Shown here: piece after piece, positions 6,914 to 54,229 of the stretch
Layout: each line of letters begins with the position of its first letter
Position numbering within the stretch: position 1 is the first letter of the stretch
Assembly (NCBI GenBank): GCA_963768055.1
Contig: CAVYGN010000001.1
Span: 960,001 to 1,024,000 of the forward strand
DNA from: an uncultured Spirochaetota bacterium
GTDB taxonomy: Bacteria; Spirochaetota; Brevinematia; Brevinematales; JAOACQ01
DNA length: 64,000 nt
Reading direction: 5' to 3'
Notes under the pieces: model-generated
Told to the model about the DNA's origin: nothing
Databases searched by the model: none
Seen by the model: the letters and a program-made list of their open reading frames with translations, nothing else
Made by a program: the position numbers and the translations under genes

Positions 6914-6927
6914 ACGGGGAGGTTCAA

Positions 6928-9900
6928 ATGTTTATTTTTAAACGGGCCCTTATTTTTTCTCTGGCAGCTTTGGTGTTCTCTTCCATATATCCTCTCGAAA
7001 AGGTAAAAGTAATTTATTTGCAGAAACTGGACAGCGGAAGCGACTTTTCCGAGGGAGGATTTTACAGGAGAGGCAATCTATATGGGGAAGGCGGGCAGCT
7101 TACCATTTCTTTTGATAAGCCCGTATTTAAATTATCGGACATTGACGCTATGAAAAGTGAAATACAGAAAAAAATCAAGCTCAAAATTACCCCTGAAATT
7201 AAAGGCGAATTCAGGCCTATAGGAACCCAGCAGGCGGCTTTTGTATTCAGGCAAAAACTGAAACCCTCTACCCGGTATGTGGTTGAAATTAACGTGGAGG
7301 AAATAAAATCGATCGACGGCGGGAATGTGACCGTTTTAATTAATCATATAAAGCTTGAGAACGGTCAGTTTGAATTCATGACTGAAAAATTGAGGGTTCT
7401 TAATTTACGGACTGGGGAAAATCTTGACGATCCGATATTTGTATTTTTTAGCTGGCCCGTCGATCCCAATAATTTGAAAAAAGAATTAAAAATAACGGAA
7501 GGATCAGTTTTAAATATCGAATATTCCATATTCTCCGTCATAAACACAAACTATATAGAAAGCAACGGGTTAACCTACGGTTACATCTATAAAAACCCGA
7601 GGGCTTTTGAAATATTGACTGCAAAGAGGAAACCCGGAAGTCAGTATTCCATAAGTATAAGCCAGGACCTGCATCCAATAGACGGGGAACTTGGTATGGA
7701 TAGGGAGTATGAATATTCTTTTAATACTTATAGTCCCCTGAAATACATTGACATTTCAACTGGCGAGTATGATTTTATCAACCAGTCGAAAACTTTCCAC
7801 CAGGATTCTGAAATCTATTTCCGTTTCAACAACGAACTGGACCAGCGGGTAAATTTAAAAAATTCAATAACCGTCGACCCGCCTGTCAAACATTTGAATT
7901 ACCAATATAGCGGCAAATCTATAATTGTTACTGCAGATTTTACAGGGGGGCAGAACTATCATATAAAAATCATCCCTCAGGTCAAGGATAAGTACGGCCA
8001 GCTAATCAACGGACCTGTCGAAGCGGATATTCCAATTGAGCATTCTTATTCTATTCTTGGAATACCTACCGGGTACATGGTGATGGAAAATTATATCCCT
8101 ATGATCCTGCCTTTGAAAATCCGGAATATCGATAAAGTGGATTTTTATTATACAATATGCCGGACCAAGGAAGATATTGTTAATTATATCAGCCGGCCTC
8201 CAAGTGAAGATGAATTCATGAAAAGCGCCAAATTGAAACAAATTAAGGTTAAGGAGACATGGGATGTATTTTTCAATTACCGCCTGGACCTTGCCCGTTT
8301 AATACCGGTTAAACCGCCTTTTATGGTGTATATGGCAGAGGCGGATAAAAAAGTCAGCGAGAATAACCAGGACAGGATAAAACGTGCGGGCATAATCCTT
8401 TTTACCGATATGGGTTTGACAGTAAAGAGCGGCCCGTACCAGACTTTAGTATATTTGCGAAGCTTGAAAAGCAACCAGCCTGTATCCGGTGCGAATGTCT
8501 ATGAAATCCTGTTCGACAAGCAGAACAACCCCGATATCAAGTTAAAAGGTAGAACCGATTCAAAGGGGGTCTGCACCTTCCAGGGCGAATTCCCCATGCC
8601 CTTTATTATGGTTGAAAAAGACAATAAGTACTGCATAAATTATGGCAATAATAAGTATTCCAACGATTATGAATATTATGACAACAGTGATTACGGCATG
8701 GATTATAATTCGCTGTTTTATAATAAAATATCCCAAAAAAGCATCATCAACAGCGGCGATTACCGTTCATACAATATGCAAAACGCTATGATATTCACCG
8801 ACCGTTTCCTTTACAAACCGGGTGAAACGATAAATGTTAAGGGAATCATACGTTACCGGTGGGAAGACAGGTGGAATACAACCGAACAGGAAGGCTCTTC
8901 ACAACCGATCGAATTTAAAGTTTACAACAGCCGTGATGAAGAAATCACGAATACGGCCGTACAGCCGGATGCATGGGGATCTTTCCATTTCAAGATTAAT
9001 TTGAAAGATTCCGATCCGACAGGTTATTACAGGATCAGTTCCACCAATTATATCGAGTGCAGTTTCAGTGTCCAGGATTTCAAACCGGCAAAAGCCGAGA
9101 TGAGGATCATTCCAAAGAAAACCGAATATGCCTGGGGGGATAATTTTGAAGCGGACCTTATTCCCTGGTACCTTTTCGGCGCGCCTGTTATCAAACCCGT
9201 TGTGTATGATGTAAGCGTCCAGCCGATAGAATTTATAAGTTCAAAATATCCGGATTATCAGTTTTCAAGGCCTGCTGAAGACCAGGGCCAGGAACGCCGC
9301 GATTACAGTTTTACCCTGATGTCAGGCACGGATTTGCCCGACAGCTCCGGGAAGTTGTCGATAACCAAACTTATTAAAAACGATATATTTTTCGGTGATG
9401 CAGGCATTATCATATCGGCTAATACGGAACTTGACGATAAATCCAGGATTTACGGGAACAGGGCCGACATTACAGTCTTTAATCCGGTCCATGTCGGCAT
9501 CAGGGTTAATCCTTATTTTGTCAATGCCAATAAAGAATTTAAAATAGATCTTATTGCAGTCGACAACAATGATAATCCTGTAAAAAACCAGGATGTCAAA
9601 ATGGAAATTGACAAGGTAGATTGGAAATCCTACCAGAAGGTGGGCGTCAACGGCAGGCTGGAATGGTATTCCGAGAATACTAAAACCAGGGTAAAAAGCG
9701 CCGACCTGCAGATTGGGAAAGAAGAGTATCCGCTGACCATCAATGAACCGGGATTTTATGAAGTAAAAGTAACATCAAAAATCCGCAGTCATGATATGGT
9801 AAGCCATGGTTCTTTTTACGTGTTGGGACCGGGCTGGGTAGGCTGGTCTATGGATAACAGTTATACTATAAGCCTTGACAGCGATAAAAAGGCGTACAGG

Positions 9901-12827: not shown

Positions 12828-13535
12828 GTGAAAAGAATATATTTCCCCATGTTAATCGCTCTTTGGGTTTTAATCGATTCCTGTTCCGGCTCTCCGGGTC
12901 CTTCTTCCGGCGGCTCCGGCAGCGGAGGTTCTCCAAGTTCTATAGTAATTTCCGCAAATGGAACGGGAAACAATGGCGGCTACTACTATTCATACTGGAG
13001 CAATGGCCAAGGGACGGTGAAAATGACTTTGGGCTCCGGCGGGGAGTACAGTGTTGACTGGCAAAATTGCGGGGATTTCACCTGCGGTAAAGGCTGGTCT
13101 ACCGGGAGTGCTCAGAGTATAACCTACAATGCCGCTGCCTGGTCGCCGTCCGGAAACGCTTATCTGGCTGTCTACGGTTGGACGACAAGCCCGCTAATAG
13201 AATATTACATTGTTGATAGCTGGGGCAGTTGGAGGCCTGCCTACGTTCATGTGGGAACAGTTGTTTCTGATGGGGGTACATACGATATATATACGAATGT
13301 GCAGGTAAACCAGCCTTCCATTGTCGGCAATGCGACTTTTACGCAGTGGTGGAGCGTCCGGCAGTCGGCGAGAACAACCGGGGGCGACAACACCATAACT
13401 ACTGCCAACCACTTTAACGCGTGGAAGAGCCTCGGAGCGACTCTGGGTACTTTCAATTACCAGATAGTGCTTGTAGAGGGATATGAAAGCAGCGGGTTTG
13501 CCGACATCACGGTAGGCGGCACCGGTACGAATTGA
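12828..13535 (+). CDS. Endo-1,4-beta-xylanase, GH11, probable lipoprotein
   Basis: [38 protein letters not shown] and VEGYESSG are present, including both catalytic Glu. N-terminal hydrophobic stretch plus Cys, then a Ser/Gly linker. Confidence 0.93.
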
Positions 13536-24020: not shown

Positions 24021-24905
24021 ATGACAGTCATGCTTAACGGTGAAACGCTCGACGTCACATTTGAGAATGAGAAAACCGTTTTTGACGTCGTGGAATCTCT
24101 CAGCAAAGAATTGAATAAAAAAGAGATAATTATTACATCGATAAACCTCGATAATAAAAATTATAATATAGATGACGATGAATTGAATAAAATATATATT
24201 GAAAAAATTAAATCAATGGACGTCGAAGCATCCACCAAAGAGGAGCTTGTAGAAACCCTCCTTGAAGAATGTAAAAAAGTTCTTGGCAATATCGCTGCAG
24301 ATATAAGGGAAAATTCCTTTACCCATGCCGGGGAATTCTCAGAACTTCTGGCATGGGTAAAAGAGACCCTTGAAACGATCAACCGCCTTGCTTTCTTCAA
24401 TCTGGCCGAGGCTAAATTGATCACATCGACTATAGACCAGATAAAGACTTTTTCCGATAACGAAGACAGGGACAAAACCAGGTACGGGTCTATAGTAAGC
24501 ATCATCGAAAGTCTTATTAAATATATAGACGCTCTAAGGTTTAAATTTTCAGCGAACTATTCGATAAGCAGGGAGGAAATTTTAGAAGCGGTAGGCGAAA
24601 GCCTTACCATACTTCCCGAGATTTCCGAAGCTTTTCAGATGGGTAAGGACCGTGAGGCCTTCGATAAGATCAATAAAATAATAAGCGTTCTTGAAATTTG
24701 TTCGGTTTATCTAAGAAAAAACTACGATAAATTTTCCGATATGGAAAAAACTGATATCGGCAATTTATATGAAGATATCAATGTCCTTCTGACTCGGATC
24801 GTTGAAGCTTTCGAGAACAGCGATGCGGTCCTTTTGGGGGACCTGTTGGAATATGAGCTTCCTGAAAAGCTTGAAAGTTATAAACGGATAATATTAAAAG
24901 GATGA
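24021..24905 (+). CDS. Hypothetical helical protein leading the cheR-cheB unit
   Basis: 294-aa ORF with RBS GGAGG, 3 bp before cheR; ends in LLGDLLEYEL. Confidence 0.7.
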   Translation: MTVMLNGETLDVTFENEKTVFDVVESLSKELNKKEIIITSINLDNKNYNIDDDELNKIYIEKIKSMDVEASTKEELVETLLEECKKVLGNIAADIRENSFTHAGEFSELLAWVKETLETINRLAFFNLAEAKLITSTIDQIKTFSDNEDRDKTRYGSIVSIIESLIKYIDALRFKFSANYSISREEILEAVGESLTILPEISEAFQMGKDREAFDKINKIISVLEICSVYLRKNYDKFSDMEKTDIGNLYEDINVLLTRIVEAFENSDAVLLGDLLEYELPEKLESYKRIILKG

Positions 24906-24908
24906 GTC

Positions 24909-25739
24909 ATGGATCTTGCAGCCTTTGAATTAAATGAAAATGATTTAAAATATATTGCCGATCTCGTTTATGAAAATTGCGGGATCGTCTTTAAAGATTC
25001 GAATTTAAGCGTGCTTATCAGCCGGATTTCCACAAAATTGAAGGAAAAAAATCTCGCTTCTTACGAATATCTGAAATTGTTAAGAACGAATAAAAATGAA
25101 CTCGCCGCATTTATAGATTTCGTTACTACAAATTTTACGAGTTTTTTCAGGAATCCGAAACAATTTGAAATATTAAAGGAAGATATTCTGCCGGAGGTCG
25201 TCAAAAGGAATTCCGCCTCAAAAATTGTCAAGATCTGGAGCGCGGGTTGTTCCACAGGCGAAGAGGCTTACTCAATTTTAATGGTCGTCGATGATTTTTT
25301 CAGGGAAAGCAATCTGGCCGCAGGGGGCTGGCGTTATCAAATCGTCGCATCGGATATAAGCCTGGAAAGCCTGTTTTTTGCAAAAGAGGGTAAATATTCG
25401 GAGAAAAATATTGAAAAAATTGAAAATCAATACATTGCCAGGTGCTTTGATAAATTGGAGAATTCTTATCTTATCAGGGATGAATTCAAGAAATTGATCA
25501 GGTTCGACTACCATAACCTTATATACGACAACGGTATCAGGGACGTCGACTTGACTTTCTGCCGCAATGTTCTTATATATTTCGATGAAGAGGTTCAGAA
25601 GAAGGTCTTGAGCAACATACAAAAATCCATGAAAGATAAGAGTTTTCTCCTTATAGGTCATTCTGAAAGCCTTATAGGCTTATTCGAGGGTTTCAAACCC
25701 TCTTTTACTGAAAAGGGTATTGTTTATGTCAGACAATAA
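24909..25739 (+). CDS. cheR: Chemotaxis methyltransferase
   Basis: TTNFTSFFR, IWSAGCSTGEEAYS, FCRNVLIYF, GHSES. Confidence 0.95.
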   Translation: MDLAAFELNENDLKYIADLVYENCGIVFKDSNLSVLISRISTKLKEKNLASYEYLKLLRTNKNELAAFIDFVTTNFTSFFRNPKQFEILKEDILPEVVKRNSASKIVKIWSAGCSTGEEAYSILMVVDDFFRESNLAAGGWRYQIVASDISLESLFFAKEGKYSEKNIEKIENQYIARCFDKLENSYLIRDEFKKLIRFDYHNLIYDNGIRDVDLTFCRNVLIYFDEEVQKKVLSNIQKSMKDKSFLLIGHSESLIGLFEGFKPSFTEKGIVYVRQ

Positions 25740-26853
25740 TAAGATAAAGGTTCTTGTCGTAGACGATTCAGTGCTTATCAGGAAATATGTGTGCATTATC
25801 CTGGAGGAACTCACAAATATAGAGGTAGTCGGGGTTGCCCATAATGGAAAAATAGCCCTTCAGAAAATCATCCTTTATAAACCCGACGTTGTGATACTCG
25901 ATATCGAAATGCCTGAAATGACCGGCCTTGAACTTCTCAAATACCTTAAGAACAGCGGCGATAAGATATACTGTCCTTTTATTATCATGTTCAGTTCCCT
26001 CCTTAAAGAAGGTTCGGCCGCTACGATCGAGGCGTTAAATTACGGAGCCGCCGATATAATAAAAAAACCCGAGGGCCAGATTTCTGAAAATATCGAGTTT
26101 CTGAAAAAGGAATTCGAACTGAAGATCAACGGCCTTTACCAGGGAAAAATAGAAAAGCGAACGGCTTTTGCTGTTCTTCCGGAGGCTTTACCCGAAGAAA
26201 AGAAAGCTTCCATCTATCCGGCGGCGCTTTCAGGCCTCGGGAACCTTGATACAGTGCTTCAAAATAAACCTATAAATCCCGAACTGGTAGCCATAGGATC
26301 CTCGACAGGCGGCCCCGCGGCTATAAGGATAATTTTAGAAAGCCTCGGCAAGCTTAAGATACCTCTTGTTATAGCCCAGCATATGCCGCAGGGATTTACT
26401 ATGGAATTCGCGAGGAATTTGAGCGCTATTTTCTGCCGTGAAATACTTGAACTGACGCCGAATTCAGCTCTTGAAAAGGGCGTGATTTATATCTGCCCGG
26501 GAGGAGTGCATTCAAAGATCAAGAAAATCGGGGATAATCTTATCTACGATGCAGACTACGGCAATTACGAGGGATTTTTCTTTAAACCGTCGCTTGATAT
26601 TTTTTTCTCTTCGATTAATCAATCCGTCGGAAAAAATACTTTAGGGATAGTTTTAAGCGGAATGGGGAAAGACGGATCTTCAGAATCGGTAAATTTAAGA
26701 AAATCCGGGGCCATAATGATCGCCCAGGATAAGGAAAGTTCGGTAATCTGGGGTATGCCTGGAAACTCTGTAAAAAACGGCGGAATTGATATTATTCTGG
26801 ACGTAAAAGAAATTGGAGAAGCAATCAATATTATTGCATCCAAAAACCGATAA
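25720..26853 (+). CDS. cheB: Chemotaxis methylesterase (REC + CheB)
   Basis: REC domain plus catalytic triad motifs GSSTGG, QHM and SGMGKDG; start probably at the ATG at 25726. Confidence 0.95.
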   Translation: MFMSDNNKIKVLVVDDSVLIRKYVCIILEELTNIEVVGVAHNGKIALQKIILYKPDVVILDIEMPEMTGLELLKYLKNSGDKIYCPFIIMFSSLLKEGSAATIEALNYGAADIIKKPEGQISENIEFLKKEFELKINGLYQGKIEKRTAFAVLPEALPEEKKASIYPAALSGLGNLDTVLQNKPINPELVAIGSSTGGPAAIRIILESLGKLKIPLVIAQHMPQGFTMEFARNLSAIFCREILELTPNSALEKGVIYICPGGVHSKIKKIGDNLIYDADYGNYEGFFFKPSLDIFFSSINQSVGKNTLGIVLSGMGKDGSSESVNLRKSGAIMIAQDKESSVIWGMPGNSVKNGGIDIILDVKEIGEAINIIASKNR

Positions 26854-26890
26854 AAATGAATCGGTACCGCTGCCAACAATAAAACAATTG

Positions 26891-26919
26891 TTGATATAAT
26901 TGCAAATTTAAAATATACT
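26891..26919 (+). promoter_or_regulatory. sigma70 promoter of cheAWXY
   Basis: TTGATA-17 bp-TATACT upstream of cheA. Confidence 0.65.
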
Positions 26920-26996
26920 TTTTAGGGAGTATCTATCGGCTTTCGGATAGGAAGCTTTGAGCCCTTTATGCTTACGCGATTAGAAAATAGGGAGGC

Positions 26997-29279
26997 TTGA
27001 TGCCTGATTTTTCAGCGGAATTGATAAAAGATTTCCTGGATGAAGCGTTTGAACTCCTTGACAGTATGGAGAAAAGTCTTTTAGTACTGGAAAAGAACCA
27101 GGGAGACGATAAGTCCATCAATGAGATATTCAGGTGCGCTCATACGATCAAGGGAGGGGCGGGGACTGTCGGTTTTCCGGAGATACAGGATCTGACTCAT
27201 GTAATGGAAGACGTTCTCGATCTTATCCGCAAGAAATCTATTAAGTTAAAATATGAAGACATATCGGTCCTTCTCAGGTGCAGGGACGAACTCGAAAAAA
27301 TGCTGACCATGAGGCAGAGCGGCCAATCTTTTATCGATAAAAGTACGGAAAAGGTCAAGGCGGAGATCTCCTCGATAAAAGCCCGGGGCCCGGCGGATAA
27401 AGGCACGGCCGGGCAGTCAAAACCGCAGGTCCAAAAACTCCAGGAGAGCGCCCAGCAGCTTATCGATGAGTCGGGATTTGCTCAAGACGACGTTTCGATC
27501 CTGACAAAAGCCGATCTTTCTCTTTTACGTACCCTTATCAACGCAGGGATCTCCCATTACGACCTTTCCCTCATTACCGATTTGATGAACCAGGGGCATA
27601 ATGTTTTCATCCTGAAATATTATTTTAATAAAAATTACGAGATGAAAGAGGTGTCTTCTTTCCAGATCTATGCGCTTTTAAACGATATATCCGAAATTAT
27701 CAAAATAAACCCCACGCTGGATGAACTTGAAAAAGCATTCCATCAGGAAGTGCTTTTTATTATCAGCACGGATAAGAACGAAAAAGCGGTCCGTGATAAA
27801 ACAAACCTTACCGATATGATAGATACTATATCTATATTAAAAATGAATTCGGATACCGTTAAAAGCCTTGACCAGATGACGCAGCAAAAGGCCCCCAAAC
27901 AGGAAGTAAAAGAAGAAAAAATGAAGGAGAGGGAAGGGGAACAAACCGCTGAAAGCGAGATTCAAAAGAGAAATATTACCACCCTGCGGGTAGAAAGCTG
28001 GAAAATCGACGAGCTTCTGAATTTTATCGGCGAGATTGTAATAATAAAAGCGGCTTTCAATCAGCTTGATGTAGATTTCGATTCCATAGGAAACGATTTA
28101 AAATCCACATTAAGGGAATTTTTGAACGGGGTCTTGAAATTAAACCTTACAGGCGAAGGCGATATATCAAAGGAAAAGAACTCTGTACTTATGAATACCC
28201 TGAATAAACTTTTCGTTTCTTTCGATACATACACCGACAGTTTGCAGAAGATAAACAGGATCCTGACGGCATTGCAGGAAAACGTGATGAATATGCGGAT
28301 GGTTCCGATCCAGATGGTCTTTTCACGTTTTCCACGGCTTATACGGGATATGGCCGATAGAATGAATAAAAAGGTTAACCTTATCATCGAAGGGGTAGAA
28401 ACTGAAATTGACAAGGGCATGGTTGACGATATTTTCGACCCTTTGATACATATTTTACGCAATTCGATCGATCACGGTATAGAGATGCCTGAGGACAGGT
28501 TAAGGCAGGGCAAGCCTGAAACCGGGAAAATGATTTTAAAGGCGAATCATGAGGGAGACAGTATTGTTATAGAGTTAAGGGATGACGGCAGGGGCATAGA
28601 CATCGACGCCTTGAAAAAGAAAGCCCTGGAAAACGGATTTATCAATAATGAGACTGCCTCTAAACTTTCTGCAAAAGAGCTTTTAGGGCTTATCTTTATT
28701 CCCGGATTATCTACAGCGAAGGAAGTTACGGACATGTCGGGGCGCGGAGTCGGCATGGACGTGGTGAAAAGAAAGATAGAGGAAATCGGGGGAAGCGTAG
28801 GGGTTTCCACTACCAGGGGTAAAGGAACAAAGATCGTTATCCGCCTGCCGCTGACTCTCGCTATAATCCAGGGGCTTCTGGTGGTCGTTCATTCCATGCA
28901 TTATGTGATCCCTGTCGCTTCGGTGGAAGAAACGGTCATAATCAGGATCGGAGATCTCAGGGAAATAAACGGGAAACTTACTTTTGAACTAAGAGGTAAA
29001 TTCATCCCCGTTATGTCGCTGGAAAAATTTTTCTATCATAACGATATTTCTACCGATCCCGAGGGAAAGATCTTCTGCATCGTTTCGAAATACGGCGAGA
29101 ACCTTGTCGGAATATTGGTATCGGAGGTCCTGGGAGAACAGGATATAGTAATAAAATCCCTGAACACAAAATTGATAAAGAGCCCCGGAATTTCGGCCGC
29201 GACTATTATCGGTAACGGGGATATCGGGTACATTATCGAAACCGGCCAGATAATAGCGCAGAATTTTAAATCTTCCTGA
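26997..29279 (+). CDS. cheA: Chemotaxis histidine kinase
   Basis: Hpt IFRCAHTIKG, HILRNSIDHG, DDGRG, SGRGVGMDVV, C-terminal CheW-like domain. Confidence 0.96.
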   Translation: MMPDFSAELIKDFLDEAFELLDSMEKSLLVLEKNQGDDKSINEIFRCAHTIKGGAGTVGFPEIQDLTHVMEDVLDLIRKKSIKLKYEDISVLLRCRDELEKMLTMRQSGQSFIDKSTEKVKAEISSIKARGPADKGTAGQSKPQVQKLQESAQQLIDESGFAQDDVSILTKADLSLLRTLINAGISHYDLSLITDLMNQGHNVFILKYYFNKNYEMKEVSSFQIYALLNDISEIIKINPTLDELEKAFHQEVLFIISTDKNEKAVRDKTNLTDMIDTISILKMNSDTVKSLDQMTQQKAPKQEVKEEKMKEREGEQTAESEIQKRNITTLRVESWKIDELLNFIGEIVIIKAAFNQLDVDFDSIGNDLKSTLREFLNGVLKLNLTGEGDISKEKNSVLMNTLNKLFVSFDTYTDSLQKINRILTALQENVMNMRMVPIQMVFSRFPRLIRDMADRMNKKVNLIIEGVETEIDKGMVDDIFDPLIHILRNSIDHGIEMPEDRLRQGKPETGKMILKANHEGDSIVIELRDDGRGIDIDALKKKALENGFINNETASKLSAKELLGLIFIPGLSTAKEVTDMSGRGVGMDVVKRKIEEIGGSVGVSTTRGKGTKIVIRLPLTLAIIQGLLVVVHSMHYVIPVASVEETVIIRIGDLREINGKLTFELRGKFIPVMSLEKFFYHNDISTDPEGKIFCIVSKYGENLVGILVSEVLGEQDIVIKSLNTKLIKSPGISAATIIGNGDIGYIIETGQIIAQNFKSS

Positions 29280-29303
29280 TTATAGAAAATTTTTCATAGG
29301 GGG

Positions 29304-29822
29304 ATGATTTTGGATCAAAAAATCCTTAATAAAAGGATCGAGGAAAAGGACCAGGTAAAAAAATCGACGATTCTTTTTCAATCCATATCTTTCAAACTCG
29401 ACAGCAGCATATATGCAATGGATGTCATGAACATCGTAGAGATAATTTTCGCTCATAAGATTTACAAAGTTCCGAACACGGATTCAAAACTGCTCGGAGT
29501 ATTGAATCTCAGGGGAAACATCCTTCCCGTTTATAGCCTTAAAATGGTGCTCGGCATGGAAGACCCTGTAGTAAACAAGGGTATAATCGAAGAAGAAGAT
29601 AAATTCATAATAATGATAAGAAAGGAAAAGGATACCTTTGGAATATTGATCGACGGGATTTACAAGAACATCGCGGCCACCGAAGACAACTACAGGGAAG
29701 GAGGATTTTTAGAAAAGTGGTCGAAAAATTCTTTATTTAAAGGGGTTATCCTTGAAGATAATCTTGAGATCCTGATTGTAAATGTGGAAAATCTTTTAAA
29801 ATATATAATAACTCTAAAATAA
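29304..29822 (+). CDS. cheW: Chemotaxis adaptor
   Basis: KVPNT...GVLNLRGNILPV. Confidence 0.92.
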   Translation: MILDQKILNKRIEEKDQVKKSTILFQSISFKLDSSIYAMDVMNIVEIIFAHKIYKVPNTDSKLLGVLNLRGNILPVYSLKMVLGMEDPVVNKGIIEEEDKFIIMIRKEKDTFGILIDGIYKNIAATEDNYREGGFLEKWSKNSLFKGVILEDNLEILIVNVENLLKYIITLK

Positions 29823-29838
29823 ACGGGAGGGATAACCT

Positions 29839-30300
29839 ATGCGTATAGAGTATATAAATCCATTCGTAGAAGCCTCGTTCGATATTTTGAACGAAGTTCT
29901 TCAGACCTCTGTTAAAAGGGGCCAGTTATATCTGAAGAAACTGGGCGAGTCTATGAAAGGAGTTGCTGTCGTAGTAGGAGTCATAGGAAATTTAAAGGGA
30001 AGGATAGTATTCGACCTATCCGAAGATACAGCCATAAAAATCGCATCGAAACTCAACGGAGAGGAATTTAAAACATTCGATGAAATGGCGAGAAGCACCA
30101 TTTCAGAGATAGCCAACATGATTACGGGCCGTTCAGTAACAAAGCTTGAAAAAGACAAGCTGAATTTCAGCTTTACTCCGCCAACCCTGATAACCGGTGA
30201 AAATCTCAATATATATGAATATGCCGATATGGAGGCGCTGATTATTCCCATCGATACCGGTTTAGGCGTCATAGAGATCAATATGGCTTTCAAGGAATAA
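29839..30300 (+). CDS. cheX: CheY-P phosphatase
   Basis: MRIEYINPFV, ExxN (EIANMITG), TPPTLITG. Confidence 0.93.
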   Translation: MRIEYINPFVEASFDILNEVLQTSVKRGQLYLKKLGESMKGVAVVVGVIGNLKGRIVFDLSEDTAIKIASKLNGEEFKTFDEMARSTISEIANMITGRSVTKLEKDKLNFSFTPPTLITGENLNIYEYADMEALIIPIDTGLGVIEINMAFKE

Positions 30301-30314
30301 ATAGGAGGTGAGTC

Positions 30315-30737
30315 ATGGCAATAGTATATGATGACAACGGTTTGCCTACAGGCAGGAAAGTGGGCGGAGGAAATGTTAAAGTCTTGATCATAGATGATTC
30401 CCAGTTTATTATAAAACATTTAAGCCAGATTTTCATGTCGAGGGATTTTGAGATAATCGGCACAGCGGAAAACGGTAAGACCGGGGTGGATTTGTTTAAA
30501 GAGCTCCATGATAAAACCGACATAGTCACGCTTGATATTACAATGCCTGAAATGGACGGACTTGAGGCATTGAAACAGATTAAAGCGGTCGATCAAAATG
30601 TAGCCGTGATCATGGTGACGGCGATAGGAACCGCTGAAGCGGTTAAGGAGGCGATAAAACTTGGCGCAAAAGGCTATATAGTCAAGCCTTTGGACAGGGA
30701 AAAGGTCATAGAAAGAATAGGCCAGATTTTGAAATAA
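30315..30737 (+). CDS. cheY: Chemotaxis response regulator
   Basis: Single REC domain (LDITMPEMDG, YIVKP) with an N-terminal extension, directly after cheX. Confidence 0.9.
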   Translation: MAIVYDDNGLPTGRKVGGGNVKVLIIDDSQFIIKHLSQIFMSRDFEIIGTAENGKTGVDLFKELHDKTDIVTLDITMPEMDGLEALKQIKAVDQNVAVIMVTAIGTAEAVKEAIKLGAKGYIVKPLDREKVIERIGQILK

Positions 30738-43157: not shown

Positions 43158-43272
43158 TATTGTAATTCCAGAATCAACAACTACCGTAAAAAAATTTCTG
43201 CGTTGACAATTCGAGATATTGTAAAAACAATCTAAAATGTTATATAATTTAACCCGGGTAAGGCAGGATTAT

Positions 43273-48699
<5,427 letters not shown>

Positions 48700-48909
48700 A
48701 ATTATAATTTAGAAGAAACGAAAAGTCACTACCTCCCAATTTTCCCTTTAATGAAAAAAATGTTATAATTTATCTGAGTTGAAATATTTATATAAGTTTC
48801 CGGTACACTTTCCGTAACTTCTATATAAAATCATTTCATTAACTCATTCTATGTAATATAATTAAAGTAAATATTACATATAATTCAAAGTTAAACGGAG
48901 TTATTTAAT

Positions 48910-50208
48910 ATGTGTTATGCAATACCCGGAAAGGTGAAATCCGTCAAGGACAAATGGGCTTATGTGGATTATTTCGGCGAGGAAAAAAGGGCTTACAATG
49001 AATTCCATGATCTTGTTCCCGGCGATTATATCTATGCCCAGGCGGGTATTGTAATAGAAAAAATCGCTTCTAAGGAAGCGAGGGCAATATTAAAGACCTG
49101 GAAAGAACTGTTCTTCTCTTTGAGAAAAAAGGATGAAGAATTGCTGAAAGACAGTATCCAGGCGGTTTCAGTGAGGACATCCGTAAGAAAACTGCTTGAT
49201 GAGGCCCTGGAAGGCCGGAAACTAACCTCAGACGAACTTTTTTCACTGATAAAAGCCGGTGATGCCGGCGATCTGGCGGACATGTACAGTACGGCAAATC
49301 TCATGAGGGCGAAATTTCATAAAAATTCCTGCTGCGTCCATGGGATAATAGAAATATCGAACTATTGCGCCAGGAACTGCGCATATTGCGGCATATCGTC
49401 TGAAGTCAGGAACATTACCCGCTACAGGATGTCGGAACAGGAAATAATAGAGACGGCGCACACAGCGGTAAATAAATACGGTTTTAAAGCCCTTGTACTT
49501 CAAAGCGGAGAAGATTGTTCCTATTCGGTCGATGAACTGGCTGATATTATACGCATTATCAAGAAAAACGATAACGTTCTGGTTTTTATCAGTTTCGGAG
49601 AAATCGGCTCCATAGGGCTTTCGACGCTTTATAAAGCCGGAGCGAGGGGACTTCTCCTGAGGTTTGAAACGTCGAACCCTGAACTTTATTCCAGGCTTCA
49701 CCCGGGGCACTTGCTGGAAGACCGCCTGAACGACCTCAGGAACGCTTATGATATGGGTTATCTTATAATCACGGGTTCACTGATAGGCCTGCCGGGCCAG
49801 ACTGATATGGACCGCTTGAACGATATCCTTCTTGCCAGGGAACTTCACACTGAAATGTACAGTTTCGGCCCGTTCCTTCCCGCTCCAGGTACGATCCTTG
49901 AAAGGAGCAGAAAACCGGATACGGATATGGTTTTAAAAACAATAGCCGTAACCCGGATCGCGGATGCAGAGAACGCTAAAATACTTGTAACGACGGGTTT
50001 CGAAACGCTCTCGAAAGATGCGAGGCGCCGAGGCCTTATGTCCGGCGCGAATTCGGTTATGATCAACCTGACGCCCGCACTCTATAAAAAAGATTATGCA
50101 ATCTATCCTAACCGGGCTCACAGGGATGAGGATCTTGGACGTCAGATCGAAGACACGCTTTTCCTTCTCAAAAATTTAGGAAGGGCCCCGACTGATCTGG
50201 GGTATTAA
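48910..50208 (+). CDS. Fusion of an N-terminal HypC-like domain and a HydE/PylB/BioB-clade radical SAM domain
   Basis: MCYAIPGKV...AYVDYFG...PGDYIYAQAG is HypC-like. The rest has CARNCAYC, VLQSGED, LLRFETSN, IGLPGQT, GANSVMINLTP and YAIYP. Confidence 0.85.
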   Translation: MCYAIPGKVKSVKDKWAYVDYFGEEKRAYNEFHDLVPGDYIYAQAGIVIEKIASKEARAILKTWKELFFSLRKKDEELLKDSIQAVSVRTSVRKLLDEALEGRKLTSDELFSLIKAGDAGDLADMYSTANLMRAKFHKNSCCVHGIIEISNYCARNCAYCGISSEVRNITRYRMSEQEIIETAHTAVNKYGFKALVLQSGEDCSYSVDELADIIRIIKKNDNVLVFISFGEIGSIGLSTLYKAGARGLLLRFETSNPELYSRLHPGHLLEDRLNDLRNAYDMGYLIITGSLIGLPGQTDMDRLNDILLARELHTEMYSFGPFLPAPGTILERSRKPDTDMVLKTIAVTRIADAENAKILVTTGFETLSKDARRRGLMSGANSVMINLTPALYKKDYAIYPNRAHRDEDLGRQIEDTLFLLKNLGRAPTDLGY

Positions 50209-50209
50209 C

Positions 50210-51142
50210 ATGAATCCGCCGATAATCTGTGTAAAAAATGTCAGCAAGAGCTATGGAGAGATCAGGGCTGTAAAAGATTTTTCATTCGATGTCGAAGAAG
50301 CCACATGTTTCGGCTTTTTAGGCCCTAACGGGGCCGGAAAAACAACAATGATGAAAATGATTTACGGTAAGGCTGAAAGAGACAAAAAGTCAAAAAGCGA
50401 AATAAGGGTTATGGGATTCGATCCCGCTAAAAAACCGCTTGAGATCAAGTCCATTTCCGGAGTCGTACCCCAGGAAGATAATCTTGACGAGGAATTGAGC
50501 GTATTCCAGAACCTTTATATCTATACGCGCTTTTACGCCATTCCCGCCGCTGAGTCAAGGAAAAGGATCGATTCTCTTCTGGATTTTATGGAACTTACAG
50601 ATAAAAAGAAGGCGATGATCCGTGAACTTTCCGGCGGGATGAAAAGACGCCTGATCATTGCCAGGGCTCTTCTGAATAATCCGAGGCTTCTTATTCTCGA
50701 CGAACCGACCACAGGCCTGGATCCGCAGGTAAGGCACCTTATCTGGGACAAGATAAGGAAATTAAAAAAAGAGGGAGTAACGATCCTGCTTACCACCCAT
50801 TATATGGAAGAAGCCTTTGAGATCTGCGACAATATAATAATCATGGATAAAGGGGTAAAAGTTCTCGAGGGAAATCCTCACAAGCTCATTTCAACCAACC
50901 TGGAAAAATACGCCCTTCAGATCATTAATAAAGAAAACGCTTCATGCATCGAGAAAAACCTGGATTTCAAGCTTATCAGGAAAGAGGAATCGGAGGAAAT
51001 AGTGGCGTATTATTCCAACGACCTGAAGTATCTTGAAGATATAGCCCTCTGCATGAAAACAGGAGATTTCTATATCCGGCAGTCCAACCTTGAAGACCTG
51101 TTCCTGAAAACAACGGGGAGGAGCCTCAATGAAGACCAATAA
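50210..51142 (+). CDS. ABC-2 exporter ATP-binding subunit (NodI-like)
   Basis: GPNGAGKT, LSGGMKRRL, LDEPTTGLDPQ, TTHYMEEA. Confidence 0.92.
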   Translation: MNPPIICVKNVSKSYGEIRAVKDFSFDVEEATCFGFLGPNGAGKTTMMKMIYGKAERDKKSKSEIRVMGFDPAKKPLEIKSISGVVPQEDNLDEELSVFQNLYIYTRFYAIPAAESRKRIDSLLDFMELTDKKKAMIRELSGGMKRRLIIARALLNNPRLLILDEPTTGLDPQVRHLIWDKIRKLKKEGVTILLTTHYMEEAFEICDNIIIMDKGVKVLEGNPHKLISTNLEKYALQIINKENASCIEKNLDFKLIRKEESEEIVAYYSNDLKYLEDIALCMKTGDFYIRQSNLEDLFLKTTGRSLNEDQ

Positions 51143-51914
51143 ACCCTGTGTTCCCTCTCTTTTCTGGAGGATATGGAGCGTGTGGTACCGTCACATGCGT
51201 GTTTACTCAAGGAATATATTGACGAACGGGCTGCCTCCTTTCCTGGATCCACTGATATTCCTGGCAGGCATAGGCATTGGACTGGGCATCTTCATAGGAA
51301 AGATGGAAGGCATTTCATATATTGAATTCCTTGCCTCGGGGCTGCTTGTTTCCACTGCGATGTTCACATCGTCTTTCGAGTGCTCCTTCGGCACTTTCAT
51401 CAGGCTTGAGTTCGACAAAGTTTATGACGGTATGATAGCCGCCCCCCTTACTGCTGAAAACATATTTGTCGGCGAGATCCTATGGGCAGGAGCCAAGGGT
51501 TTCTTCTTTTCCATGGCCGTACTGATAATAATAAAGATCTTCGGGTTTATTCCTGGCCCTATGAGCTTTTTCACTCCCTTTGTAGGGATGCTTACAGGGC
51601 TTATGTTTGCTTCTTTAGCCCTGTTGGTCACATCCTTTGTAAAAACTATAGACCAGTTCAATTTCCTCTTTACCGGCTTCCTTTCTCCGATGTTCTTCTT
51701 TTCGGGTATATTCTTTTCGCTCCAGAATATGCCGCCTGCGATACGGGTCCTGGCTGAGTTCCTGCCGCTAACGCACACAGTGCGCCTGGCGAGGGCCCTT
51801 TGCTTCGGAAGATTCGGTAACCTTGTTTTTCTGGATCTTTTGTATACGGCCGTTTTCATATTACTTTTCGCATACCTGGGAGTTTCCAGGCTCAAAAGAA
51901 AGGTCATAGATTGA
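51129..51914 (+). CDS. ABC-2 exporter permease (NodJ-like)
   Basis: Six TM helices, PMFFFSGIFF, LPLTHTV. Confidence 0.9.
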   Translation: MKTNKPCVPSLFWRIWSVWYRHMRVYSRNILTNGLPPFLDPLIFLAGIGIGLGIFIGKMEGISYIEFLASGLLVSTAMFTSSFECSFGTFIRLEFDKVYDGMIAAPLTAENIFVGEILWAGAKGFFFSMAVLIIIKIFGFIPGPMSFFTPFVGMLTGLMFASLALLVTSFVKTIDQFNFLFTGFLSPMFFFSGIFFSLQNMPPAIRVLAEFLPLTHTVRLARALCFGRFGNLVFLDLLYTAVFILLFAYLGVSRLKRKVID

Positions 51915-51933
51915 CCTGAGGCGGAGGCGGAAA

Positions 51934-52782
51934 ATGCACTACTATAAATACCATGGCCTTGGCAACGATTACATTGTCATAGATCCCTCTCAGGTAAAAA
52001 TTCTGCCCGATAAAAATAATATACGCCTTATCTGCAGCCGGAATTACGGGATAGGTTCCGACGGCATCCTTTACGGCCCGTTATTCGAAAACGGTTCGAT
52101 CGTTTTAAAGATATTCAATCCGGACGGGAGCGAGGCTGAAAAGAGCGGCAACGGGGTAAGGATTTTTTCAAGATTTTTATATGAAAAAGGATATGTGGAA
52201 AAGAGGAATTTTTCTTTTTTAACAAAAGGCGGAAAGGTTGAAATCGAGATAATGGATGAAAACGCGCGCATGATCAAGGTTAACATGGGCAAATATACCT
52301 TTCATAGCGAAAAAATACCGGTATCGGGGATGCAACGCGAGGTGATAAACGAAGAGATCGTCCTGGAGGGAAACTCCTACCGGATGACATGCGTTTCCGT
52401 CGGCAATCCTCACTGCGTCATACCCCTGCCTGATATTTCCGAAAACCTAGCCAGGAGGCTCGGGCCGATAGTTGAAAATTATCCGCTTTTCCCTAACAGG
52501 ATCAATATGCAGCTTTTAAATGTCGTCGACAGGAACAATATAAGGATCGAGATATGGGAGAGGGGCGCCGGTTATACCCTGGCGTCGGGCAGCAGCAGCT
52601 GCGCCGCCTCGCTCGCCGCTTTCAGGCTCGGCATGGTCGACAGCCATGTAAATGTCAAAATGCCGGGCGGGATCATCGGGATAGATATAAAAGGGGAATA
52701 CGTCGAAATGACCGGCCCTGTCGAGGGAGTGGCCGAGGGAAATTTTTCGGGGGAATTTCTGGGGAAGATGAAGCTGGGGTAA
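51934..52782 (+). CDS. dapF: DapF-fold amino-acid epimerase with Ser/Ser active site
   Basis: KYHGLGNDY, GIGSDG, NPDGSEAEKSGNG, VGNPH, FPNRIN, WERGAGYTLASGSS; both canonical Cys positions are Ser. Confidence 0.8.
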   Translation: MHYYKYHGLGNDYIVIDPSQVKILPDKNNIRLICSRNYGIGSDGILYGPLFENGSIVLKIFNPDGSEAEKSGNGVRIFSRFLYEKGYVEKRNFSFLTKGGKVEIEIMDENARMIKVNMGKYTFHSEKIPVSGMQREVINEEIVLEGNSYRMTCVSVGNPHCVIPLPDISENLARRLGPIVENYPLFPNRINMQLLNVVDRNNIRIEIWERGAGYTLASGSSSCAASLAAFRLGMVDSHVNVKMPGGIIGIDIKGEYVEMTGPVEGVAEGNFSGEFLGKMKLG

Positions 52783-52868
52783 ACAAGGATTACCGCAAAG
52801 ATCGCAAAGAATTACAGGGAGAAACGGAGAAGCGGAGAGTTTTTTAAAATATACGGCCTTTATTCGAT

Positions 52869-53057
52869 GGAACCGCGTACAAGGTGAAGCATGCGTTTAC
52901 AGTAAAATTAGTAAAATACCCGAAGCGTACGATTACCTGGAGAAAGCAGTTAATGCGGGATACAAGGATTATGAGTGGATTCTTAAAGATCCCGACCTGG
53001 AAAACCCGAGGAATGATAATGGTTGGGAGGCTTTTTTACGACGGCCTGAAAAAGTAG
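52869..53057 (+). pseudogene. Fragment of a TPR 'end-of-group' domain
   Basis: Manual translation gives ACVYSKISKIPEAYDYLEKAVNAGYKDYEWILKDPDLEN..., with no start and a frameshift just upstream. Confidence 0.65.
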
Positions 53058-53151
53058 GACGAAAAGCTCTATTTCTTTCCTGCTGGATTCGAAACAATAT
53101 TCAGTTTTTATATGTAGTCAATTTTTATCTCGCATTTATGAAGAAAACATA

Positions 53152-53295
53152 GAACTGCCATCGAAAAAAGGCGAAGCAAGCGTTTCGTCCAAGACCGCTA
53201 ATAGTATTTAACCGATTCTTATAGATAATAAAAAATTCTTCAATTAAAAAAGTATTCAATCAAACGCTTGCCGCCGTTTTGAGATGATGCAGTTC
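53152..53295. repeat. Long imperfect inverted repeat
   Basis: GAACTGC-CATC...GGCG..GCAAGCGTTT pairs with AAACGCTTGC.CGCC...GATG..GCAGTTC around an AT-rich spacer. Confidence 0.6.
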
Positions 53296-53359
53296 AAGTT
53301 TTCGAATCCGGAGAGATAAAAATTGACTACATAAAAGCCGGATGTTGTTTGAACGGCCC

Positions 53360-54229
53360 TTACTTCCCACTCTGCAGTATATTCTGGATCGTATTGCTGA
53401 TCGATTCGGCGTCTTCGGCAGCGTTCAGGCTGAGCGCGGCATACATGGCCCTTTTGTAATAATAGATCGATTCATCCTTCCTGCCGAGCTTGAAACAATC
53501 GCCGGCTATCTTTTTTAAATCGTCGAGTATGGCCGCGGTTTTTTCCGCGATCTTGTCGTTTTTAAGGGCCGACAGGTAATTTGTAAGCGCGCTGCCGTAA
53601 TTCAGCTTGTCGTCATAGACTTCGCCGAGATAGTAGTAATTATCCCCAAGGGAGTCGTAAACCTTTCCCCCCTCGTTAATCTGCCTCGCTTTTTCAAGCC
53701 ATCCCGCGGCTTCGTCCAATCTTTTGAGTTTTCTATAGGCTATTCCAATGTTATTATATGCGCCGGCCCTGTCCTGGTCGTTTGCCGCCGATCCGTAGGC
53801 CATCTGGTAATATTTGAGCGCGGTTTCATATCCATTCGTGTTTTCATAAGCCTTCTCGTAAAATTTACCGATGGTAAGATAAATTATAAAGTCGTACTCT
53901 TTTGTGTTTTCATAACCCTTGATAGAGTATGCCGTGAATATATAGTTTGAAGCTTCGGTATAATTTGCCTGTCGCAGCGACAGTTCGGAAAGCTTCTGGT
54001 AAATGCTTATCACATAGCCGGTGTTGTCTATGCTGTAACTTTCCGTGAGCGCGTCAAGGTAATATGACCTGGCGGACTTGAAATTTCCGGACCTGTACTC
54101 CTTAAGTCCGAGAGAAACCAGGTCGGAAACTTCTTTTTCAATAGTATTCCTGACTGAAGGGTTTACTGGGGGTGAACCGCATGAAAACAGCATCAATAAA
54201 GGTATAATTATAACAATCGTTTTTTTCAT
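53360..54229 (-). CDS. TPR lipoprotein
   Basis: LFSC lipobox; TPR motif AGAYNNIGIAYRKL. Confidence 0.85.
   Translation of the reverse strand: MKKTIVIIIPLLMLFSCGSPPVNPSVRNTIEKEVSDLVSLGLKEYRSGNFKSARSYYLDALTESYSIDNTGYVISIYQKLSELSLRQANYTEASNYIFTAYSIKGYENTKEYDFIIYLTIGKFYEKAYENTNGYETALKYYQMAYGSAANDQDRAGAYNNIGIAYRKLKRLDEAAGWLEKARQINEGGKVYDSLGDNYYYLGEVYDDKLNYGSALTNYLSALKNDKIAEKTAAILDDLKKIAGDCFKLGRKDESIYYYKRAMYAALSLNAAEDAESISNTIQNILQSGK

Follow-up and report, generated by a model that had tools for sequence, protein, structure and literature searches.

A HypC-type domain fused to a distinct clade of HydE-like radical-SAM enzymes, and its possible place between [NiFe] and [FeFe] hydrogenase assembly

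We analysed a stretch of 64,000 nucleotides, here called the window, from an uncultured Spirochaetota bacterium (GenBank assembly GCA_963768055.1, contig CAVYGN010000001.1, positions 960,001 to 1,024,000 of the forward strand). An open reading frame (ORF) at 48910..50208 on the + strand encodes a protein of 432 amino acids, in which a HypC-type domain, a component known from the [NiFe] pathway of hydrogenase maturation, is followed by a radical-SAM barrel related to HydE of the [FeFe] pathway. The three classes of hydrogenase are thought to use separate machineries for their iron-carbonyl centres. The family to which this protein belongs may link the [NiFe] and [FeFe] assembly pathways. The gene has the following features, in window positions.

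48897..48900, + strand: GGAG ribosome-binding site, 9 nucleotides 5′ of the ATG, read from the sequence
48910..50208, + strand: the whole ORF, a HypC-like domain plus a HydE-clade radical-SAM barrel, 432 amino acids plus stop
48910..49161, + strand: HypC-type domain, residues 1-84, five beta strands and then a long helix (54-84), from Pfam, the structure model and Foldseek
48913..48915, + strand: codon of Cys2, the N-terminal cysteine that defines HypC-type carriers, aligned with Cys2 of solved HypC
49039..49041, + strand: codon of Gln44, at the site of HypC's conserved histidine, from the profile alignment with T. kodakarensis HypC
49186..50190, + strand: HydE-like radical-SAM (beta/alpha)8 barrel, residues 93-427, from phmmer, Foldseek and NCBIfam
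49330..49341, + strand: C141-C142-V143-H144 on strand beta1, from the alignment; Cys142 and His144 mark the clade
49366..49389, + strand: CX3CX2C (C153, C157, C160), the radical-SAM [4Fe-4S] motif, from sequence and alignment
49585..49587, + strand: codon of Phe226, which replaces a conserved Thr of HydE (F in 92% of the clade, T in 93% of canonical rows)
49648..49650, + strand: codon of Gly247, which replaces a conserved Arg of HydE (G in 88% of the clade, R in 89% of canonical rows)
50002..50004, + strand: codon of Glu365, the fifth clade-specific site, directly behind the conserved T361-T362 pair (E in 96% of the clade, with G as the most frequent canonical residue, 36%)

The translation begins MCYAIPGKV and has no frame break. 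The GGAG supports a start at 48910 over an internal GTG at codon 88. Database entry P0002, which is flagged as the window's own protein, has 345 amino acids identical to residues 88-432 (window 49171-50208). Thus, the source annotation apparently took the internal GTG as its start and left out the HypC domain. Automatic annotation of the fusion proteins is also inconsistent, with names that include HydE, HypC-family chaperone, radical SAM protein and biotin synthase, and it can drop the HypC domain, as apparently happened for the source of the window. A full-length AlphaFold2 model, built from a 34-row alignment, has a mean predicted local distance difference test score (pLDDT) of 90.1 and a predicted template-modelling score (pTM) of 0.90. 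The latter value, in a chain of two domains, suggests that the predicted packing between them is defined.

An earlier note on this DNA, made from the sequence alone, had read the N-terminus as HypC and had proposed a hidden Markov model (HMM) search with HupF_HypC, Radical_SAM and BATS. All three models matched, and the HypC identity is well supported. Pfam HupF_HypC (PF01455) covers residues 1-64 with E=6e-14 and 52.3 bits, above its cut-off of 28.5, while NCBIfam hypC_hupF (TIGR00074) gives 39.9-42.7 bits, under its cut-off of 48. When solved structures were searched by sequence, residues 1-67 matched T. kodakarensis HypC (E=2e-8), as did a profile of 34 N-terminal domains (E=4.5e-14). At E<=0.01, this profile matched four HypC structures and no other structure. 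The domain modelled alone has a pLDDT of 91.9, and its ten best Foldseek matches in the PDB are all HypC (best 2z1c, TM 0.88, root-mean-square deviation (rmsd) 1.4 Å). The note had regarded the lack of a HypC profile match or of an oligonucleotide/oligosaccharide-binding (OB) fold match as fatal to its reading; both matches were found.

The residues M1, C2, Y3, A4, I5, P6 and G7 are invariant in all 34 aligned members, as are Y21, G23, A43, Q44 and G46. In the profile alignment, 'vivHtG' of T. kodakarensis HypC lies opposite 'iyaQgG', which places the HypC histidine (His51 in E. coli) at Gln44. The note had observed that Cys2 is kept and that Gln stands in for this histidine; the alignment agrees, and both residues are invariant in the family. 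In the helix that leads toward the barrel, W64, F68 and D75 are invariant in both of our alignments, and F69 and L71 are invariant in one and conserved at >=90% in the other. The carrier domain is better conserved than its linker. Residues 1-5 (1-6 in the domain-only model) are predicted to be unstructured in both models.

The remainder of the protein, which the note had called HydE-like, clearly deserves this description. Pfam places Radical_SAM at 147-305 and BATS at 323-401. In a phmmer search of solved structures with residues 93-427, T. maritima HydE (E=3e-61) comes well before PylB (3e-26) and biotin synthase (2.5e-15). Foldseek aligns the model to T. maritima HydE with a target-normalised TM of 0.92, an rmsd of 1.6 Å and 37% identity over the alignment. 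The NCBIfam HydE model (TIGR03956) ranks first for the window protein with 221.3 bits, ahead of PylB (122.6), BioB (104.3) and HmdB (79.4), although this score is below the equivalog cut-off of 254.6. Close family members score 214-257 bits on this model, and only one of 11, the window protein counted, reaches the cut-off. Remoter members of the clade straddle it, with 214-283 bits.

The motifs that the note had listed for this region are present as described. The three cysteines of CxxxCxxC at 49366-49389 are C153, C157 and C160, which vary neither in the fused clade nor in canonical HydE. GANSVMINLTP (379-389) and the C-terminal YAIYP (396-400) stand at positions conserved across HydE. The cluster cysteines, R251, E253, M316, M384, T388 and P389 are among the residues that are >=90% conserved across all 71 rows of fused and canonical proteins. 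We take R251 and E253 to be the binders of the cysteine's free carboxylate. M316 and M384 align with M224 and M291 of T. maritima HydE, which correspond to the pair of methionines on the iron's path in passages of a review (PMC10114646). No invariant C-terminal cysteines that could hold an auxiliary cluster occur in the 34-member alignment.

The fusion is far from peculiar to this contig. The architecture PF01455 plus PF04055 occurs in 119 of the 120 best database clusters, at about 416-452 amino acids, and the only exception is the 345-amino-acid P0002. Relatives that are up to 79% identical have the same length of 432 amino acids. In a collection with one genome per species, 345 of 373 pattern-matched stretches encode a relative. 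We kept 80 of these loci, with the phylum labels Omnitrophota (40), Planctomycetota (8), Margulisiibacteriota (7), Spirochaetota (6), Elusimicrobiota (2) and Myxococcota (1), and with no phylum named for the other 16. The HypC-HydE fusion is genuine and not an artefact, and these data show that it is ancient, widespread and strongly conserved. The note's concern that the fusion might be unique to this assembly is removed by the clusters and stretches that share or relate to it.

A search of 1.84 billion representatives with residues 88-432 gave 2785 matches at E<=1e-3. The HydE model was matched at E<=1e-55 by 125 of the 126 proteins scanned from the best 150 representatives. We built a tree of 74 rows, using a quick IQ-TREE method with support only from the Shimodaira–Hasegawa-like approximate likelihood ratio test (SH-aLRT). 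Its rows are 61 representatives chosen from the 150 (fragments and the rest being excluded), seven close relatives, the window protein, two canonical HydE proteins from the loci and three HydG/ThiH outgroups. With the root on HydG/ThiH, all HypC-bearing proteins form one clade of 26 rows that is nested in HydE (SH-aLRT 100). The note had proposed such a phylogeny, and the result is a separate clade within HydE, with PylB and BioB far behind by score. Judged from its sequence, the barrel is a distinct clade inside HydE, and not simply HydE.

The N-terminal domain was recognized by HMM or Pfam in 22 of the 26 clade rows, and P0259 has a partial match. It was not detected by either in P0254, P0256 and P0263. 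Two of these three lack an initial Met and are possibly truncated calls, as is P0002. The sister group of the fused clade consists of P0272, P0273 and P0360 (support 99 for the trio and 90 for its union with the fused clade). These proteins carry an N-terminal Se_S_carrier domain (PF11823) of about 70 amino acids. HydE thus occurs fused to small carrier-like domains of two kinds. In a search for split forms, at least 120 shorter matches (the best 120 of 131) look like fragments, mostly from short contigs. Among the shorter matches listed there is no clear case of a free-standing HypC of the MCYAIPG type, which is weak evidence because a protein of 75 amino acids may miss the thresholds.

To define what distinguishes the fused barrel, we compared the 26 rows of the fused clade with 45 rows of canonical HydE. 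A position was called clade-specific if it has the same residue in >=85% of the fused clade and that residue in <=15% of canonical rows. Only five positions qualify: 142, 144, 226, 247 and 365. Cys142 and His144 occur in 26/26 fused-clade rows and in 0/45 canonical rows. Position 142, which corresponds to H52 of T. maritima HydE, is C in 100% of the fused clade and H in 47% of canonical rows. Position 144, which corresponds to R54, is H in 100% of the fused clade and R in 93% of canonical rows. Phe226 and Gly247 map by sequence alignment to T134 and R155 of the T. maritima enzyme. At positions 144, 226 and 247, the fused-clade residue is found in 0-2% of canonical rows.

Three of the lost residues are thus an arginine, a threonine and an arginine. 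We take R54, T134 and R155 to be the numbers of a triad in HydE's S3 site. According to the passages of a 2021 review that deal with it, S3 is the lower, product site, lies near the protein surface and contains a threonine and a pair of arginines that are conserved; an Fe(CO)2CN species has been observed there, and a C-terminal stretch covers the site, where an exit route toward HydF has been proposed (PMC10114646). We infer that the replaced R/T/R is this product-pocket triad; the equation is our own because the review's passages give no residue numbers. The residues that the clade shares with canonical HydE would instead line the upper pocket for S-adenosylmethionine (SAM) and the substrate.

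The gene neighbourhoods of relatives connect the fusion to [NiFe] hydrogenases. We called 1438 ORFs in the 80 loci and the window, clustered them with BLASTP and named clusters present in at least two loci using NCBIfam and Pfam. Counts refer to the 79 evaluable fusions of 81 sources, and to the loci as opposed to whole genomes. The commonest gene order is a group-3b-like [NiFe] hydrogenase (beta, gamma, delta, alpha), a HycI-type protease, a short HypA-like gene, the fusion, Rex and HydG. In a second arrangement, a membrane-bound, Mrp-linked [NiFe] hydrogenase precedes the same trio of protease, HypA and fusion. The protease and/or HypA lies at most three genes upstream of the fusion in 63/79 cases, and this link recurs with each phylum label that the loci bear. 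In 61/79 loci there is a gene for a [NiFe] large subunit, and these subunits have RICGIC and DPCISC motifs and a C-terminal extension. By type, 47 of the 79 have a 3b-like hydrogenase and 17 a membrane-bound, group-4-like enzyme. In most relatives the fusion closes a [NiFe]-hydrogenase operon, behind the genes for the HycI-type protease and HypA.

Rex comes directly next in 30 of the 79 loci, and an [FeFe] group-A hydrogenase is encoded in 10. Nine have no hydrogenase-related gene, including the window and its closest relative, L001. A six-frame scan with an HMM of the N-terminal domain revealed no second HypC-like ORF in the 81 sequences; only the fusions were found. HypB, HypD, HypE, HypF and HydF are absent from the clusters present in at least two loci. 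Motifs for HypD, HypE, HypB, HypF and HydF had only two hits among the 1438 ORFs. One is the C-terminal half of HydF in L003, which a model confirmed, such that HydF occurs in 1/81 sequences. The other, a candidate HypF, is a multihaem cytochrome instead.

The HypA-like gene upstream of the fusion usually encodes only about 80 amino acids (L004:9647-9889, L005:9756-9998 and 51 other loci; cluster 3). The short protein keeps the N-terminal MHE nickel motif and has no CxxC...CxxC zinc domain. In L002, L024 and L028 there are full-length HypA-like forms with the cysteines.

A second connection is to HydG. HydG is encoded in 42/79 loci, and in 33/79 it lies within three genes downstream of the fusion; 39/79 have both the upstream protease/HypA and HydG. 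The link also appears as gene fusion. Among proteins of 757-2160 amino acids there are 19 matches at E<=1e-20, of which 17, with 805-946 amino acids, have PF01455 and radical-SAM domains, and 16 of these 17 have BATS as well. In length and domain content, these 17 correspond to HypC-HydE-HydG triple fusions. For P0242 and P0250, which cover both N-terminal flavours (MCYAIPG and MCLTIPG), we confirmed HypC, the HydE-like barrel and HydG (607 and 631 bits for HydG). P0265 is a HydE-HydG fusion without HypC. No fusion to HypD/E/F, HydF or a hydrogenase is apparent from the Pfam domains of the 19 long homologues.

In L021 and L003, a HydE of canonical length adjoins HydG at the same locus as the fusion. 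Their HydE-model scores are 330.7 and 359.6 bits, against a cut-off of 254.6. L003 begins with the C-terminal half of HydF (269 bits, profile positions 214-392). Coexistence of this kind indicates, at the level of sequence, that the fusion is probably not simply the cell's HydE.

Some of the HydG-like proteins are themselves unusual. Relative to CX2CX22C, which we assume to be the C-terminal pattern of HydG, 16 of the 42 (474-526 amino acids, most 498-500) deviate, namely L003:597-2114, L004:11968-13467 and those in 14 other loci. The deviant form reads CTAGYRCGRTGKC...FCKLNA, with Gly at the expected second Cys and extra cysteines nearby. In L003 it adjoins canonical HydE and HydF, and so the variant is not specific to the fusion.

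How might these parts work together? The data support one integrated enzyme that works with HydG: the rebuilding of the mapped product pocket coincides with the fusion, the carrier is more conserved than its linker, and the sister clade also has a carrier-like domain. The reading that we put first, though with somewhat less than even confidence, is that the fusion is a HydG-dependent paralogue of HydE whose tethered HypC domain receives an iron-carbonyl-cyanide unit from it, with a [NiFe] hydrogenase as the probable destination. The mechanism itself is inferred. HydG would make the Fe(CO)2(CN)-cysteinate synthon, which would undergo radical chemistry of the HydE type in the conserved upper pocket of the barrel. 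The iron-carbonyl-cyanide fragment would then descend the barrel and be bound by Cys142 and His144, and not in an anion pocket en route to HydF. From there it would pass to Cys2 of the tethered HypC domain, which could deliver it to a hydrogenase apoprotein. The earlier note had also proposed a tethered carrier. For an iron species, this putative role fits the changes mapped to the S3 pocket, the recurring HypC-HydE-HydG fusions and the putative Se/S-carrier domain of the sister clade.

The client is the least certain step. Given the gene context in relatives, it is most likely the neighbouring group-3b-like or membrane-bound group-4-like [NiFe] enzyme. We favour a [NiFe] client because of these neighbours, the coexistence with canonical HydE (and with HydF in L003) and the lack of another HypC nearby. 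The window gene stands alone, and a client, should it have one, would have to be encoded at another place in the genome.

A far-reaching version of the proposal, which we think doubtful, is that [NiFe] hydrogenases obtain their Fe(CN)2(CO) unit from tyrosine by a radical-SAM route, constituted by HydG and the HypC-HydE paralogue. The CO and CN on iron would come from HydG, and the remodelled barrel would strip off the cysteine and load its own HypC domain. This domain would insert the unit into the large subunit encoded upstream, and HypA and the HycI-type protease would finish the enzyme. If true, these anaerobic lineages would have a bypass of HypD/E/F or a supplement to it, and the question of where the CO ligand originates would be answered.

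Several points weigh against a tethered hand-over to a [NiFe] client. The window has no genes for a hydrogenase, Hyp proteins, HydG or HydF. The synthon made by HydG has two CO and one CN, while the iron of [NiFe] hydrogenases needs one CO and two CN, and so a ligand exchange must be assumed. Contact of Cys2 with Cys142 and His144 is likewise an assumption of the hand-over step. The S3 mapping comes from a single alignment and a sentence in a review that names no residue numbers, and the tree comes from a quick method with SH-aLRT values only and long-branch warnings among the canonical rows. HypD/E/F, HydF and other copies of HydE were scored at the loci, not genome-wide. Finally, the adjacency of HydG and the intact upper pocket fit a role in [FeFe] maturation equally well, and ten loci hold an [FeFe] hydrogenase.

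The last point leads to the strongest competing explanation, which we judge rather unlikely. The fusion could be the lineage's working HydE for [FeFe] maturation, with the HypC-like domain serving only as a built-in shuttle, either for HydG's unstable synthon on its way to the barrel or for the product on its way to HydF. The [NiFe] neighbours would then reflect no more than co-regulation of fermentative hydrogenases. The nesting of the barrel in the HydE radiation, the match of nearly all its nearest representatives (125/126) to the HydE model at E<=1e-55, and the retention of HydE-wide conserved residues are all as expected for such an enzyme. So are HydG nearby in 33/79 loci and in the triple fusions, Rex next in 30/79 and the [FeFe] group-A hydrogenase that follows in 10. 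A shuttle also suits the review's passages (PMC10114646), in which the synthon is subject to decay in water and the way it passes from HydG to HydE lacks an explanation. However, canonical HydE adjoins HydG in L021 and L003, the latter with HydF too, and HydF was found by motif and model in only 1/81 sequences. Moreover, the mapped exit pocket toward HydF has lost its conserved Arg/Thr/Arg in the fused clade, and among the neighbours of the fusion, genes of [NiFe]-specific maturation are the closest and the commonest.

A somewhat less probable explanation is that neighbouring genes were fused by chance and the fusion was tolerated, with the HypC domain serving HypD/E/F in [NiFe] maturation and the barrel acting as HydE for [FeFe] enzymes. 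The usual order (hydrogenase, hycI, hypA, fusion, rex, hydG) puts a gene in the position of hypC right before hydE and hydG, such that simple read-through could produce both the double and the triple fusions. The N-terminal domain is also the sole HypC-like sequence near these [NiFe] operons. Chance does not readily explain why the fusion and five clade-specific substitutions of the barrel occur together, or why the HypC histidine is replaced by Gln in every aligned member. The invariant residues in the helix past the Pfam HypC domain, together with the pTM of 0.90 of the full-length model, also argue against two independent domains. HypD/E/F, the expected partners, were not found in clusters of at least two loci or by motif search. 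In addition, PF11823 occupies the same N-terminal place in the sister clade, which suggests that carriers at the N-terminus have a functional reason in this part of the HydE tree.

We consider it quite improbable that Cys2 is itself the substrate. In this scenario, Cys2, with a free amine and thiol after removal of Met, would take the place of free cysteine in ligating the iron of the synthon, its sulfur would be attacked by the 5'-deoxyadenosyl radical, and the domain would be a sacrificial donor of sulfur or iron. HydE is described as attacking the cysteine sulfur of the synthon (in passages of PMC10114646). The predicted unstructured N-terminus (residues 1-5 or 1-6) could thread into a channel, and the change at E365 adjoins the conserved T361-T362. 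By contrast, most of the clade-specific changes map to the lower and not the upper pocket, and R251 and E253, presumably the carboxylate binders, are unchanged. An enzyme limited to a single turnover would be costly, and a position of Cys2 near SAM is supposition. Finally, a chimera or read-through artefact of this contig, to which only the lack of the N-terminal domain in P0002 might point, has practically no chance of being correct and is refuted by the 119/120 clusters, the 345 stretches, the unbroken frame, the GGAG before the ATG and the relatives of the same length.

We now describe the surroundings of the gene in the window. A pair of NodI/NodJ-like ABC-2 transporter genes (50210-51142 and 51129-51914) starts one base after the stop codon of the fusion, and dapF follows at 51934. 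The cluster of the transporter ATPase occurs in only three sequences, and L001 has the same arrangement. The pair has no evident tie to hydrogenase maturation. Directly upstream on the same strand, 43237-48699 encodes a protein of 1820 amino acids with Ser/Thr kinase, AAA_16, TPR, GAF, sigma-54 activator and HTH_8 domains. The kinase/activator, transporter and dapF neighbours suggest no function for the fusion. We looked for sigma-54 promoters because the upstream gene is a sigma-54 activator; the window has 11 matches where 18 are expected by chance, and none lies at 48700-48910. A scan of 48600-53400 for sigma-70 promoters and terminators gave counts at chance level.

Elsewhere, the window encodes a PBP1C-like penicillin-binding protein followed by a bacterial alpha-2-macroglobulin of 1910 amino acids (4574-12660), a GH11 xylanase (12828-13535) and a chemotaxis operon with CheR, CheB, CheA, CheW, CheX and CheY-like genes (24021-30737). 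Several response regulators of the HD-GYP type (HD_5) are scattered over the window and give it a spirochaete-like flavour.

No paper on a HypC-HydE or HypC-radical-SAM fusion was found in the literature searched, which left most subscription journals outside, and a search for HydE, HydG or NiFe in these phyla also gave no paper on the fusion. In a study of [NiFe] neighbourhoods (PMC12727194), the passages on HydE, HupF, HypC and radical SAM mention no such fusion, and the word 'HypC' does not occur in a 2024 paper in Cell on archaeal hydrogenases (PMC11216029). How the unstable synthon of HydG reaches HydE, and how the product of HydE leaves, are presented as unsolved in passages of the 2021 review (PMC10114646). 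The fusion combines a [NiFe]-type carrier with a HydE-type enzyme, its mapped product pocket is changed, and it lies between [NiFe] maturation genes and HydG. These three properties make both questions about transfer testable with a single soluble protein. Even on the most conservative reading, it is a HydE that occurs in nature with a candidate acceptor joined to it covalently, and as such it would help to trap intermediates.

Among known systems, the closest comparison is HydE itself (T. maritima; TIGR03956). The two share the fold, CX3CX2C, R251/E253/M316/M384, the GAN..M...TP and Y..Y motifs, a HydG partner and their place in the tree. The fusion differs in that it scores below the curated cut-off, has Cys142, His144, Phe226 and Gly247 in place of conserved residues and carries a HypC domain. 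It also has no C-terminal cysteines for an auxiliary cluster, and it coexists with canonical HydE in L003 and L021.

The N-terminal domain resembles HypC, HybG and HupF, the Fe(CN)2CO chaperones of [NiFe] hydrogenases, in its Met-Cys N-terminus, Pro6 and OB-fold with a C-terminal helix, and its relatives occur in [NiFe] operons beside hycI and hypA. Unlike these free proteins of 75-100 amino acids, it is the N-terminus of a 432-amino-acid enzyme, has Gln for His, is below the NCBIfam hypC cut-off and was found without HypD/E/F at the loci or in the window.

Combining a radical-SAM enzyme with a partner domain has precedents. NifB, a radical-SAM metallocofactor enzyme, can be fused to a C-terminal NifX-like domain that presumably holds its product. 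This is an analogy only, as the fold family is unrelated and the cofactor and domain order differ. Fusion of HydE to partners in its pathway recurs, as in HydE-HydF fusions in algae and the HydE-HydG protein P0265; in the proteins described here, by contrast, the N-terminal partner comes from the [NiFe] and not the [FeFe] pathway. The Se_S_carrier-HydE proteins P0272, P0273 and P0360 have a carrier of another fold family and still possess the canonical Arg on beta1, and their scores (277.7, 309.5 and 309.4 bits) exceed the HydE cut-off. Nevertheless, they are the sister clade of the fusion and, like it, begin with a small putative carrier.

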